Below, one piece after another: positions 29,487 to 36,665 of a stretch of DNA of 51,548 bases. Source of the DNA: Escherichia phage SKA49. Position 1 is the first letter of the stretch, and every line of letters begins with the position of its first letter. The stretch is from the sequence record NC_079180.1; one strand, 5' to 3'. Both the position numbers and the translations under genes were made by a program. Below the pieces are notes generated by a model. It was not told the origin of the DNA. It was given only the letters and a program-made list of their open reading frames with translations, and did not search any database.

Positions 29487-30519
29487 CGACGAAGATACCG
29501 TGAATGAAGTAGTTTTGTTGAACGACAAGGCTACTTTAACGACCCGTCGTTTACGTGACTCTGGCGAAATGATTGCAGAATGCACCATCGCTCGTACTGG
29601 CATCATGCTGTACAAAGCGAAAGAACTTGGTGAAATTGCAAAACATCTGGACCCAGAATCTATTTGCCGTGTTCGTACCAAGCCGGAAGTATTATTTGAC
29701 GAAGCAACCATCGAAGGCTGTCGTTCAATTCCGGTTACTATCGGCCATCCGAAAGATGATGTTAACATCAAGAACAACAAAGAACTCCAGAAAGGGTTCA
29801 TCGAAGGGCGTCCAGTTGCAGACGGCTCTTTCTTGGCTGCATCAATCGTTTTGAATGACGAGCAAGCTGTTCGATTAGTTGATTCTGGTGTTGACCAAAT
29901 CTCCTTGGGCCATAATGCTAAACTGGCTGTATCAGAAGATGGTGAAGCCGACTTCGATAAAGTTCGCATTATCCCTAACCATGTTGCAATTGTTGTTCGT
30001 GGTCGTGCTCAGACTACTCGCATTGGTGACTCTGGTGAAGAGATTGCCATTGTTGATAAGGCAACCTTTGATGTTGTTGAAGCAGAGCGTGATGCAGCGC
30101 TTGACAAGATTAGTGTCCTTGAACAGAAACTTGCTGATGCAGAAACTGCACGACTATCCGATGAAGCTATTCAGGCTGAGGTAGACAAACGTGTAGTTGC
30201 TCGTACAGCATTGCTTGTTGATGTGGCCCGTCTTGGCGACGAGTTCTCCAACCTCGATTTCTCCGGCAAGACCGATGCAGAAATTAAGTTGGCTGTAGTT
30301 AATAAATTGCATGACAAGGATTTCAGCGATAAGAGCGAAGACTATATCTCCGCCCGTTTCGATGCAGCTCTTGAAGATTGCGATTCCATTACTTTGGGAG
30401 ATGCCCTGAATCAGTCTATGCAATTCGCTGCTAAGAAAGATTCAGAAGCTCGTAAACCTAAAGTTTCTATTTCCGAAGAAGCTAACAAACGTCGTTTAGA
30501 ACGCTTCAACTCTTTATAA
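29455..30519 (+). CDS. prohead protease/scaffolding protein (putative; GTG start uncertain)
   Basis: Between portal and capsid genes; C-terminal coiled-coil ISVLEQKLADAETARLSDEAIQAEVDKR. Confidence 0.5.
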   Translation: MKQNQNLVQLNDEDTVNEVVLLNDKATLTTRRLRDSGEMIAECTIARTGIMLYKAKELGEIAKHLDPESICRVRTKPEVLFDEATIEGCRSIPVTIGHPKDDVNIKNNKELQKGFIEGRPVADGSFLAASIVLNDEQAVRLVDSGVDQISLGHNAKLAVSEDGEADFDKVRIIPNHVAIVVRGRAQTTRIGDSGEEIAIVDKATFDVVEAERDAALDKISVLEQKLADAETARLSDEAIQAEVDKRVVARTALLVDVARLGDEFSNLDFSGKTDAEIKLAVVNKLHDKDFSDKSEDYISARFDAALEDCDSITLGDALNQSMQFAAKKDSEARKPKVSISEEANKRRLERFNSL

Positions 30520-30528
30520 GGTAAGACA

Positions 30529-31002
30529 ATGCCAAAGCAAGATTGGTCTATTAATACTGGTGAAGCATATGCAGGTGAACAATACGGCCTGGCTACCACC
30601 AACTCCCAGCGCCTGACTTACGTTGCCGAAGAAGAAATGGCAAACTTTGGTCTGGCTGTTGTTCAAGGCACGGCATCTAATCAGGTTAAACCTGGTATTG
30701 GAGCAGACGGTACTGTTCTGGGCGTTACTATGCGCCAGCTTAACATCGAATCTGCCACCCGTCCTGGTGACGGTACTGTTGCAATCAAAGTTGGTTGGCC
30801 TCTGGGTGTTATGCTGTCTGGCCCAATCATGGTCAAACTGAAAGCCGCAATCACCGACAAGAACATTGGTGTATCCACTAAAGGTGAATTTGGTGGCGTT
30901 GGTGCTGGCTATACTAAAGCAACCAACCTGACTGCACTGCGTTATCCGGCTTCCGCTGGCGATGTTGTTCCGGTCATGATTAACGTAGTCCCAAAGCCGT
31001 AA
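30529..31002 (+). CDS. head decoration protein-like structural protein (157 aa; zero-frame product)
   Basis: Host-optimal codons; position between scaffold and major capsid genes as for lambda D. Confidence 0.6.
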   Translation: MPKQDWSINTGEAYAGEQYGLATTNSQRLTYVAEEEMANFGLAVVQGTASNQVKPGIGADGTVLGVTMRQLNIESATRPGDGTVAIKVGWPLGVMLSGPIMVKLKAAITDKNIGVSTKGEFGGVGAGYTKATNLTALRYPASAGDVVPVMINVVPKP

Positions 31003-31295
31003 CGCCACCTCCATCTCCTACAGTATCTGCTGTAGCAGGAGTTGTAACTGCTGACGCATCTGTATCTGATGCTACTGTAACTGTGGACAAGCTGTTTAAG
31101 TTTGAGAACTCCACAGCAACAGACTATAACTTCACTGTTACGCCTCCCGTGACTGGTGTTTCTGTGGCGGCAAACGGCACTGTGACTGTTCTGAATGAAA
31201 CGACTACTGATACCTCTGCCACGATTAAGGCAACAAACAAAACAACCTCCAGCGTGACTGCAACTAAAGAAATTGCTATTACGCCGAAGTCTTAA
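30529..31295 (+). CDS. predicted -1 frameshift product: decoration protein fused to C-terminal Ig-like domain (about 254 aa)
   Basis: Slippery heptamer C_CCA_AAG at 30990-30996; -1 frame stop TAA 30981-30983 immediately upstream; -1 frame open to 31295 with no start codon or RBS before GTG 31083; Pro-rich linker TPPPSPT then beta-rich T/S/V domain; frame confirmed against minus-strand track ORFs. Confidence 0.55.
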
Positions 31296-31303
31296 GTTGT
31301 GAT

Positions 31304-31324
31304 GGCGCAATTAATAGTTGCGCC
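31304..31324 (+). promoter_or_regulatory. hairpin GGCGCAA-TTAATAG-TTGCGCC upstream of major capsid gene
   Basis: Perfect 7-bp stem. Confidence 0.3.
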
Positions 31325-31350
31325 TCACCAAACAAAACGGATTAATTTAC

Positions 31351-32358
31351 ATGCCTAAGATGATTAAACTGGCGGACGGTTCTGAATTCGAACTGAACGA
31401 CGCCATCGCTCGTATTCAGGATTCTGGTACTGTTCCTCTGAATGATGACGACGCAGTATTCTTTCAACGCCAGCTTGAGTTCATTGAAGCTCAAACTTAC
31501 GACACTCTGTATCCAGAACTGGAGGCTCGTGCTGCTTTCGGTGTGGACACTACTGGTGGTGCTGGCGTAAACACTCTGACCTACCGTTCTTACAACCATG
31601 TTGGTAAAGCACAGGTAATTAACGCTCGTGCAACCGACCTGCCGAAGTCCAGCATTTCTGGTAAAGAATACAGCATCCCTGTTAAGTCTGTTGGTACTGC
31701 ATTCGACTACGATATTGACGAAGTGGCTTCTGCTGCTGTTACTGGCCTCCCGCTGGAAACCCGTAAAGCAAATGCTGCCATCCGTGGTTACGAGCAGTAT
31801 GTTAACTCCGCTGCATGGTACGGCGATAAAGCTAACGGCTTTGTTGGCTTCTTCGAAAACCCAGACATCACCAAAGCAACTGTTGCTCAGGGTGCTGGCA
31901 AGTCTACCAAGTGGGCCGAGAAGACTCCGACCGAAGTTATTGCCGACCTGACTGCTGCTGTGTCTGCAATGTATGCTTCTACTCTGAAAATCATGCGCCC
32001 GGACGAAATCTGGATGCCTGTTGAGCATGAGCAGTACATCTTCAACACTGCACGTTCTGAACAGTCTGACAAGACGATTGGTCAGTTCTTCATTGACAAC
32101 AACCAGTTCATCAACTCCCGCGATAAAATCAAGGGTCTGAACGCAATCAAAGGTCACGGCGATGCTGGCTCTGATTGCTTCGTTGTTGTTTGCCGCAATG
32201 CAATGGGCAACCGTACCTTCCGTCTGCGTGAACCTCTGCCGCTGACCTGGCAACCGGTACAGCTTCATGGCCTGGTTTATGAAGTTCCTGGTCGTGGTCG
32301 TTTCGCTGGCTTCCAAGCGATGTATCCGGCAGCAATCTCCATCAACTCCGGCATCTGA
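31351..32358 (+). CDS. major capsid protein (start uncertain; track ORF begins TTG 31318)
   Basis: Strongly host-optimal codons; follows portal-scaffold-decoration genes; followed by stable hairpin. Confidence 0.7.
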   Translation: MPKMIKLADGSEFELNDAIARIQDSGTVPLNDDDAVFFQRQLEFIEAQTYDTLYPELEARAAFGVDTTGGAGVNTLTYRSYNHVGKAQVINARATDLPKSSISGKEYSIPVKSVGTAFDYDIDEVASAAVTGLPLETRKANAAIRGYEQYVNSAAWYGDKANGFVGFFENPDITKATVAQGAGKSTKWAEKTPTEVIADLTAAVSAMYASTLKIMRPDEIWMPVEHEQYIFNTARSEQSDKTIGQFFIDNNQFINSRDKIKGLNAIKGHGDAGSDCFVVVCRNAMGNRTFRLREPLPLTWQPVQLHGLVYEVPGRGRFAGFQAMYPAAISINSGI

Positions 32359-36030: not shown

Positions 36031-36489
36031 ATGGCTTGTGAATTGCTTCAACGTGAATTCACAAACTCCAAAGGCGAAACAGTGTTAGTCGTTGTTCGAC
36101 AATTGTCGGCTTCGGCTGCACTGTCTCTTCACGCGGAGTTGGTAAGCAAGTTAGGCTCACGAGTATTTCCATTCATCGAAGGTAAATATAACTTCGCTGA
36201 TATTATATACTTGATGCAGCAAGTAGAGCATACCGTATTCACAGAATTGTTTAAGCGTGTTATCAGCATGCACTCGTCCATAGACGGACAAGAAATCAAA
36301 CCTGCATTATATGATATGCAGTTCAATGGCGAATTGATGTTGTCTTGCCATGTCTTTGCTTTCGTGCTCGAAGCAAACTTCCTTGATTTTTTCAAGCAAG
36401 GGCTCGAAATCCACGAACAGAGACGATTGGAGGCGGAGGAAGCATCCAAGCTGGCAGAGCAGAAGAATTCGAGTCCGGAGACAGTTTAG
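36031..36489 (+). CDS. tail assembly chaperone (zero-frame product)
   Basis: Position between tube and tape-measure genes; contains slippery site near 3' end. Confidence 0.55.
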   Translation: MACELLQREFTNSKGETVLVVVRQLSASAALSLHAELVSKLGSRVFPFIEGKYNFADIIYLMQQVEHTVFTELFKRVISMHSSIDGQEIKPALYDMQFNGELMLSCHVFAFVLEANFLDFFKQGLEIHEQRRLEAEEASKLAEQKNSSPETV

Positions 36490-36665
36490 TATCCCTGTTC
36501 CCCGACATAAAATATTTTCTGCATCGTCCTATAATCGAAGACAGTTCTCTCTGCAAGTTACGTGAATTGCAAGATGGAACCTATTCGATTATGGACTTAT
36601 TGCTATTCCACGACATTCTCGATTTGCGTAAGAAACTCGAACCAGTAGATGAAGACAATGGCTAA
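36031..36665 (+). CDS. predicted -1 frameshift product of tail assembly chaperone (G-T / E-E'-like)
   Basis: Slippery heptamer T_TTT_TTC at 36387-36393; -1 frame stop TGA 36384-36386 immediately upstream; -1 frame open for 93 codons to TAA 36663-36665, overlapping the tape-measure start. Confidence 0.5.

Follow-up and report, generated by a model that had tools for sequence, protein, structure and literature searches.

The window studied here is the whole 51,548-nucleotide (nt) stretch of DNA from Escherichia phage SKA49 (NC_079180.1), a Carltongylesvirus genome (Chaseviridae, Cleopatravirinae). Within it we followed up a candidate programmed -1 ribosomal frameshift in the last codons of a head gene encoding 157 amino acids (aa), where a slippery heptamer, C_CCA_AAG, is followed by an open -1 frame encoding an immunoglobulin (Ig)-like domain. 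Both the heptamer and the -1 open reading frame (ORF) are conserved in related phages across at least five genera of the Cleopatravirinae, a check that the earlier note on this DNA had proposed, and the comparison of these sequences provides strong evidence for a programmed -1 frameshift that would append the Ig-like domain to a capsid cement protein. The locus contains the following features:

30529..31002, + strand: zero-frame capsid cement/decoration gene, 157 aa, 16.3 kDa, with its TAA stop at 31000-31002 (from the ORF list, Pfam, PHROG and predicted fold)
[quoted passage not shown]
30990..30996, + strand: slippery heptamer C_CCA_AAG, zero-frame codons GTC CCA AAG, in the X_XXY_YYZ register
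30996..31295, + strand: -1-frame extension, 99 codons (30996-31292) plus TAA (31293-31295), base 30996 being read twice
30996..31025, + strand: Pro-rich linker AVTPPPSPTV (from translation), with a predicted local distance difference test (pLDDT) score of 83, below that of the domain
31018..31035, + strand: hairpin CUACAG(U)-loop-(G)CUGUAG, 21 nt past the heptamer, a doubtful stimulator
31020..31292, + strand: predicted bacterial Ig-like (BIG2-like) beta-sandwich domain (from AlphaFold, Foldseek and PHROG)
31083..31085, + strand: GTG used as the start of a 70-aa gene in the ST32 records, judged not to be a real start

The cement gene ends in GTC CCA AAG CCG TAA, and direct reading and recomputation both place C_CCA_AAG at 30990-30996 in the slippery register. 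The earlier note, made from the letters alone, had put this heptamer six codons before the stop; it does precede the stop, but ends only one codon upstream of the TAA. The note was also right that the -1 frame is closed by the TAA at 30981-30983, but the frame opens two codons upstream of the heptamer, at 30984, rather than exactly at it, and then runs to the stop at 31293-31295. Both frames overlap over 16 nt (30984-30999), and because of the -1-frame TAA the shift has to fall within this interval. The overlap holds only four in-frame heptamer positions, and simple arithmetic puts the chance of finding X_XXA_AAG there at ~0.1%. The coding strand of the entire 51.5-kb window has a single CCCAAAG, X_XXA_AAG occupies 3 of 10,374 in-frame positions, the two others leading to 4 and 12 open -1 codons, and only 0.7% of shuffles matched in composition contain an open frame of 99 codons or more.

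Following tandem slippage, the first codon would be GCC (30996-30998). The predicted fusion junction, MINVVPK followed by AVTPPPSPTV, reproduces on translation what the earlier note had written, and its -1 ORF of about 100 codons up to 31295 has 99 codons past the slip. The fusion would comprise residues 1-156 plus 99 aa, that is, 255 aa and 26.1 kDa, next to a short form of 16.3 kDa. AVTPPPSPTVSAVAGVVTADASVSDATVTVDK is a tryptic peptide of the predicted fusion; the VVPK-AVTPP junction is not spanned by trypsin.

By sequence and predicted fold, the 157-aa product is a beta-tulip capsid cement protein and a member of PF22758, in line with the head decoration protein proposed earlier. It matches Pfam PF22758 (Phage_cement, titled 'Structural cement protein (E217 gp24/Pam3 gp6)') over positions 4-152 of 157 (E 4e-17, 63.1 bits vs a gathering cut-off of 27) and PHROG 563 'virion structural protein' (E 5e-27). 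Its AlphaFold model, built on an alignment of 43 homologues, has a pLDDT of 86.7, and Foldseek matched this model to cement and decoration chains solved within capsids: those of Pam3 (8hdt_G, template modelling (TM) score 0.71), T1 (9kzj), XM1 (7kmx), E217 (8frs_f) and Pa193 (9b40), with further matches to FCWL1, HFTV1, Sf11 and the base of the phi29 head fibre. E217 gp24 forms a beta-tulip trimer on the threefold and quasi-threefold axes of the capsid (PMC10329688). In phage 4HA13, the orthologue, 69% identical to the window protein, was detected, at 100% coverage, in virions purified on CsCl, where only three proteins were more abundant by ion chromatogram (PMC9699118).

The -1 product is confidently predicted to fold as a bacterial Ig-like domain, as the earlier note had supposed. 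Cement protein and extension were modelled separately; an alignment of the whole fusion misaligned short extension sequences. The alignment-based AlphaFold model of the extension (pLDDT 92.3) is all-beta with nine strands, the first of which begins at extension residue 9. Foldseek returned the C-terminal Ig domain of T5 pb6, phi29 gp8 and invasin from the PDB (TM about 0.6) and, from BFVD, phage Ig-like matches with TM 0.74-0.77, including SGF2 and NJ01 phage proteins named 'Bacterial Ig-like domain protein' (TM 0.76-0.77). The extension also matches PHROG 13745 'Ig domain containing protein' (E 8e-7). A comparison of the window extension with Pfam, including the Big_2, I-set, Ig_3 and FN3 families, gave no match; the extensions of relatives (henceforth cassettes) match Ig_3, Ig_2 or SprB. 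A comparable linker follows the heptamer in relatives, irrespective of the type of cassette behind it.

The site was compared across 35 distinct related loci, drawn from phages in GenBank, from IMG/VR and from assembled metagenomes; 26 of them carry a cassette and 9 do not. In 23 loci, which come from Carltongylesvirus, Sabourvirus, Suwonvirus, Faunusvirus, Loessnervirus and metagenomes, C_CCA_AAG does not vary, and in an alignment anchored on the heptamer no other block within the 97 nt around it is fully conserved. Among the 165 third-codon positions of the cement gene, just 10 show no variation, two of them in the CCA and AAG codons of the heptamer. The residue before the Pro varies (V, I, G, A or L), yet its codon is always NNC, although these five codons account for 17, 46, 40, 12 (GCC) and 5% (CTC), respectively, of the codons used for their amino acids in these genes, with a product of 2e-4. 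The Pro codon is always CCA (41% usage) and the Lys codon always AAG (33% usage). These codon choices indicate that conservation of the heptamer extends to its synonymous sites and goes beyond the needs of the protein sequence.

The -1 frame is open in 26/26 cassette-bearing loci, and the other sense frames hold 3-16 stops. The ratio of nonsynonymous to synonymous polymorphism (pN/pS) is 0.18-0.40 in the -1 frame vs 1.1-2.3 in the other two sense frames. Over the 29 codons from the heptamer to GTG 31083, variable columns number 11, 8 and 27 at codon positions 1, 2 and 3, and the ratio of the corresponding substitution rates (dN/dS) is 0.09-0.28 upstream of this GTG and 0.07-0.29 downstream. 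From these patterns the -1 ORF is under purifying selection from the heptamer onward, the upstream part being indistinguishable from the rest. The antisense ORFs at 30942-31310 and 30514-31014 are interrupted in relatives and were rejected. The real genes of the window all lie on the + strand.

None of the 22 GenBank/RefSeq records examined for this phage group annotates a frameshift; they show separate small genes or nothing. Gene callers yield products of 70-90 aa here, recorded as independent genes in ST32 (gp56, 70 aa), Y2 (gp67), BSBP01 ('Ig protein'), PYps23T (gp57) and others, and the downstream ORF might thus be an independent 'Ig domain containing protein' gene of 70-90 aa that uses an internal GTG start, for example that at 31083. 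We consider this very unlikely. The annotated starts fall 21, 42, 81 and 147 nt after the stop, and in GJ1, PM1, EcoM1, Aioli and Orgeat nothing is annotated. GTG 31083 is the first GTG of the window's -1 ORF (codon 30); it is not conserved (absent from flopper, 4HA13, PM1, Aioli and others) and is not preceded by a Shine-Dalgarno sequence, its upstream duplex energy being +0.6 kcal/mol vs -3 to -6 for real genes of the window. There is no ATG anywhere in this ORF, so that the earlier description of a frame with neither ATG nor ribosome-binding site holds, and none within the first 60 codons of any cassette, where GTG and TTG codons are scattered, unconserved and devoid of a Shine-Dalgarno sequence; in three phages (Aioli, pEa_SNUABM_27 and Fifi44) these 60 codons include no start codon of any kind. 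Purifying selection acts upstream of GTG 31083 as well, and since the Ig-like domain begins at extension residue 9, the GTG start annotated in GenBank would delete three beta-strands. Finally, an independent gene leaves unexplained both the invariant heptamer and its co-loss with the cassette, described below.

The other annotations of the cassette are equally varied: a minus-strand coding sequence (CDS) in Fifi44 (1563-1790 of locus L018), a 45-aa CDS in 4HA13 and nothing in pEa_SNUABM_27; elsewhere the region is entered as a hypothetical gene. The ST32 paper counts ORF56 as present in ST32 and absent from GJ1; GJ1 carries the same -1 ORF.

Behind the same slip site, and always in the -1 frame, lie at least six unrelated Ig-like modules of one or two domains. 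Apart from the type found in the window, these include:

PM1 and Aioli: a divergent version of the window-type domain
pEa_SNUABM_27, Fifi44 and Papaline: a distinct Ig-like cassette
Orgeat: an Ig_3/SprB-like domain cassette
Myduc: another Ig-like domain cassette
Locus L032: two I-set-like domains
Locus L033: an Ig_2/Ig_3 domain cassette
Locus L034: a 228-codon module
flopper and SA91KD (loci L002 and L003; 2097-2678): a tandem-duplicated cassette

In flopper and SA91KD the extension has 193 codons, with two copies joined by a second linker, PPAPTV, and this duplication accounts for a 282-bp insertion in the BLAST matches. The exchange of cassettes is seen as mosaic identity: the cement proteins of Y2 and Orgeat are 92% identical and their extensions 21%, and the corresponding values are 94% and 30% for pEa_SNUABM_27 and Aioli, and 58% and 73% for the window and Y2.

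The nine relatives without a slip site (Spp001, pAh6-C, VPs20 and loci L028-L031, L035 and L036) all lack the cassette, and in cassette-less relatives the capsid gene begins 15-89 nt after the cement gene. An A_AAR slip codon, 0-2 codons from the stop, is present in 26/26 cassette loci, where the heptamer is canonical in 24/26 (in L032 it reads C_CCA_AAA, followed by TAA), vs 0/9 cassette-less loci. For the association of slip site and cassette, Fisher's test gives p = 8e-7 when only canonical heptamers are counted and 1e-8 when every slip codon is, both uncorrected for phylogeny. Several cassette-less relatives end in a short in-frame, linker-like tail rich in Pro and Ala (for example ...LPKAAAAPSA). 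In the last 30 nt of the gene, L028, L035 and L036 retain ..CC AAA G.., with AAA read as a codon, followed by SKGAATPGE, PKAAAAPSA and TKVAAPVEP, respectively, and a stop; these tails look like linker relics left after cassette loss.

Translation might also terminate at TAA 31000 and reinitiate on a non-canonical codon, or RNA polymerase might slip, giving a free linker-plus-Ig protein or a fusion from edited mRNA, respectively. A stop 0-2 codons from the site could indeed serve translational coupling as well as the stimulation of shifting by a 'shifty stop'. This explanation strikes us as more improbable still than an independent gene: no ATG, GTG or TTG lies near the stop in the -1 frame, and neither reinitiation nor polymerase slippage explains selection for the XXX_YYY register at synonymous sites. 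Transcriptional slippage as known needs longer runs than three C and three A. The least probable explanation, that the heptamer and the open frame arose by chance, or are decaying leftovers from which nothing is expressed, would fit the lack of an experimental product and of a stimulatory structure in the window, but a non-functional remnant is excluded by the dN/dS of 0.07-0.29 across the ORF, and chance or decay also sits badly with a frame open in 26/26 cassette loci where other frames hold 3-21 stops, with a confidently predicted fold, and with cassettes that are replaced and duplicated (flopper, SA91KD) always in the same frame.

We propose instead that C_CCA_AAG at 30990-30996 directs a programmed -1 frameshift by which one message would give two products. 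The majority of ribosomes would read CCG and stop at TAA 31000, releasing the 157-aa cement protein destined for the capsid. In a minority, tRNA-Pro and tRNA-Lys would re-pair from CCA_AAG to CCC_AAA in a tandem slippage, and the shifted ribosomes would continue through the Pro-rich linker into the 90-residue Ig-like domain, producing the 255-aa fusion. Co-assembly of the fusion via its cement domain would lead to sub-stoichiometric display of Ig-like domains on the head, where they would likely confer weak adhesion to carbohydrates or surfaces. On the comparative evidence it is very probable that the trans-frame cement-Ig fusion is made. The anatomy of the site, the selective constraint on heptamer and -1 ORF, both folds and the way in which slip site and cassette go together across relatives are shown here; that slippage occurs and how efficiently, that the fusion enters virions and what the domain does are inferred.

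Several observations weigh against the proposed frameshift. Published reports contain no trans-frame peptide or 26-kDa band, and the virion proteomics of 4HA13 lists the short form alone, among annotated gene products (PMC9699118); the trans-frame fusion was presumably not among the sequences searched in that study. No in-frame cement-Ig fusion was found in a 5.8-billion-protein index and a library of 1.84 billion representatives: the 127 cement homologues (82 clusters plus 45 representatives) are all single-domain proteins of 124-187 aa, and the extension has homologues among short ORF calls only. In the window, the RNA downstream of the heptamer does not fold better than dinucleotide shuffles (z = -1.2 for 84 nt and -0.4 for 70 nt), no Shine-Dalgarno-like stimulator lies upstream of the heptamer, and an Rfam scan of 30800-31450 gave no match. 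Last, the sites of Myduc (G_GCA_AAG TAA) and L033 (G_GTA_AAG) are non-canonical, and the slip-site rule is therefore not absolute. The case for the trans-frame protein is supported by comparative genomics and not proven.

With no clear stimulator in the window, shifting of the window type is probably unassisted and of low, perhaps very low, efficiency. Such low shifting would suit a decoration tolerated only in a minority of cement subunits, and the absence of in-frame fusions among the homologue clusters points in the same direction. The CTACAG/CTGTAG hairpin of the earlier note is present at 31018-31035, with a spacer of 21 rather than about 22 nt, and has one covarying pair (A-U to C-G) that probably reflects a single event. 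It is not supported as a stimulator: its z is not significant, its 21-nt spacer is atypical, a distance of 5-9 nt being expected, and it has no counterpart in relatives with other cassettes. The zero-frame stop always lies 0-2 codons past the slip site. As pea enation mosaic virus illustrates, shifting can be affected by a stop codon located 3 nt beyond the site, and a 3' CC context is the most shift-prone for A_AAA_AAG (PMC5009743); the adjacent stop and the 3' CC context may contribute to shifting in the window.

Strong hairpins begin 3-10 nt past the heptamer in pEa_SNUABM_27 (-27.6 kcal/mol, z = -4.4), L032 (z = -3.8), L034 (z = -3.2) and Papaline (z = -2.6), which suggests cassette-specific frameshift stimulators in relatives with other cassettes. 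These stable downstream hairpins (z -2.6 to -4.4) map to the following positions:

Locus L017, 1469-1538
Locus L032, 1972-2041
Locus L034, 1990-2059
Locus L020, 1469-1538

These observations can be joined in a single tentative reading, to which we would give slightly less than an even chance. The invariant C_CCA_AAG-plus-stop junction of the Cleopatravirinae would act as a docking site with a fixed frame offset for horizontally exchanged cassettes for surface display, such that any Ig-like module recombined behind the slip site and linker would automatically be expressed on the lattice of capsid cement at a low, assembly-compatible ratio. Each cassette's own downstream hairpin, strong in pEa_SNUABM_27, L032 and L034 and absent from the window type, would tune this ratio, and loss of the cassette would be followed by loss of the slip site.

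Frameshifting has repeatedly been used to append Ig-like domains to phage structural proteins (PMC5009743, citing Fraser et al. 2006); T3 10B, A2, A118/A500 and PSA are examples. In E. coli, C_CCA_AAG is 'highly shift-prone', the single tRNA-Lys favouring AAA over AAG in pairing, and nature also uses single-tRNA A_AAG sites, G_CGA_AAG among them (PMC5009743); the variant sites of Myduc and L033 fit such natural sites. The 10A/10B pair of the T3/T7 type resembles the window in that a -1 shift close to the 3' end of a head gene produces a minor product, extended at its C-terminus, which is assembled together with the major one, and gene 10b of K1F was for this reason chosen for sub-stoichiometric display (PMC13370021). 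It differs from the window in its carrier, which here is a PF22758 beta-tulip cement protein and not an HK97-fold major capsid or tail tube protein, in the stop 0-2 codons after the site and in the exchange of the cassette among many unrelated Ig-like types.

Lactobacillus phage A2 likewise extends a head component with an Ig-like domain, but there the extended component is the major head protein. The A2 site is reportedly C_CCA_AAA, nearly identical to that of the window and matching the L032 site, with a downstream structure, whereas the window shows no significant structure. The sites of E. coli dnaX (A_AAA_AAG) and lambda G/GT (G_GGA_AAG) similarly exploit the single tRNA-Lys at A_AAG; dnaX differs in having an upstream Shine-Dalgarno sequence and a downstream hairpin as stimulators, neither of which is evident in the window. 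The -1 site of E. coli copA is C_CCA_AAG itself. On the structural side, both sequence and predicted fold place the N-terminal 156 residues in the same family as E217 gp24 and Pam3 gp6, and phi29 gp8.5 carries an outward fibre on a base similar to the window cement protein, but none of the three is reported to gain a domain by frameshifting. T4 Hoc also displays Ig-like domains on the head, presumably for weak adhesion; it is encoded by a gene of its own and includes a domain that binds the capsid, whereas the Ig-like domain of the window would be anchored on the cement protein by recoding.

Appending Ig-like domains by frameshifting is already established. What is new here is the carrier, a PF22758 beta-tulip cement protein, the lineage, Cleopatravirinae, and the clarity of the cassette swaps and the co-loss. 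In the literature covered, from which the original GJ1 and Y2 genome papers were missing, no paper ties Chaseviridae or cement proteins to such a frameshift. The beta-tulip cement protein would join the known carriers that receive Ig-like domains through recoding, and a systematic annotation error would be corrected across a subfamily whose members infect E. coli, Erwinia, Pectobacterium and Yersinia and have been proposed for biocontrol or therapy. With one slip site, many swapped cassettes and lineages in which both were lost, these phages offer an unusually clean natural experiment, which could serve the study of how frameshift efficiency and capsid display co-evolve, and the slip site would lend itself, as it stands, to displaying foreign domains on them in low copy number.

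Two further features lie downstream of the extension:

31304..31324, + strand: GC-rich 9-bp hairpin after the extension stop, 27 nt before the capsid ATG
31351..32358, + strand: major capsid protein gene (Pfam PF09950, E 3e-47)

The hairpin reads GGCGCAATT-AAT-AGTTGCGCC and is not followed by a T-run. One is found at this position in nearly all of 21 folded loci, with stem sequences that differ between genera (GGCGTAG/CTGCGCC, GGTGCGAC/GTCGCACC and GCGGCCAA/TTGGCTGC). It falls after the extension and not after the zero-frame stop, marking the end of the cement-plus-cassette unit, and might act in RNA processing or stability, or as a terminator recognised by an RNA polymerase of the phage itself. 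Between the cement gene and the extension, our scan detected neither a strong terminator nor a strong promoter; its weak consensus matches all fall inside the two coding regions. A 'terminator' annotated at the equivalent place in SA91KD was not accepted for the window, which has no T-run there.

The cement gene sits between the DUF2213 protease/scaffold gene and the major capsid gene, in the order portal (PF06381), DUF2213 protease/scaffold, 157-aa gene, a 350-nt 'gap' and major capsid (PF09950). In the ORF list the capsid ORF begins at TTG 31318; relatives use an ATG equivalent to that at 31351 (335 aa), which is the likelier start. The 1-kb region has matches in 45 phage genomes at 82-95% identity, the closest being Escherichia phage ST32 (Carltongylesvirus). 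One record, PP952070.1 ('Staphylococcus phage Pel53', host Staphylococcus hyicus), is 89% identical over the region to this group of E. coli and Yersinia phages; its host assignment is probably wrong, or the record contaminated.

A second frameshift candidate lies in the tail assembly chaperone gene at 36031-36489 (PHROG 11820, E 8e-75), which contains a classic G/GT-type T_TTT_TTC at 36387-36393. Its -1 frame opens exactly at the site, stays open for 90 codons up to 36665 and so extends past the start of the tape-measure gene at 36649, and the C-terminal part of the -1 extension matches PHROG 4364 (E 5e-18). Judged by its sequence, this site gives the genome another programmed frameshift, of the canonical kind.

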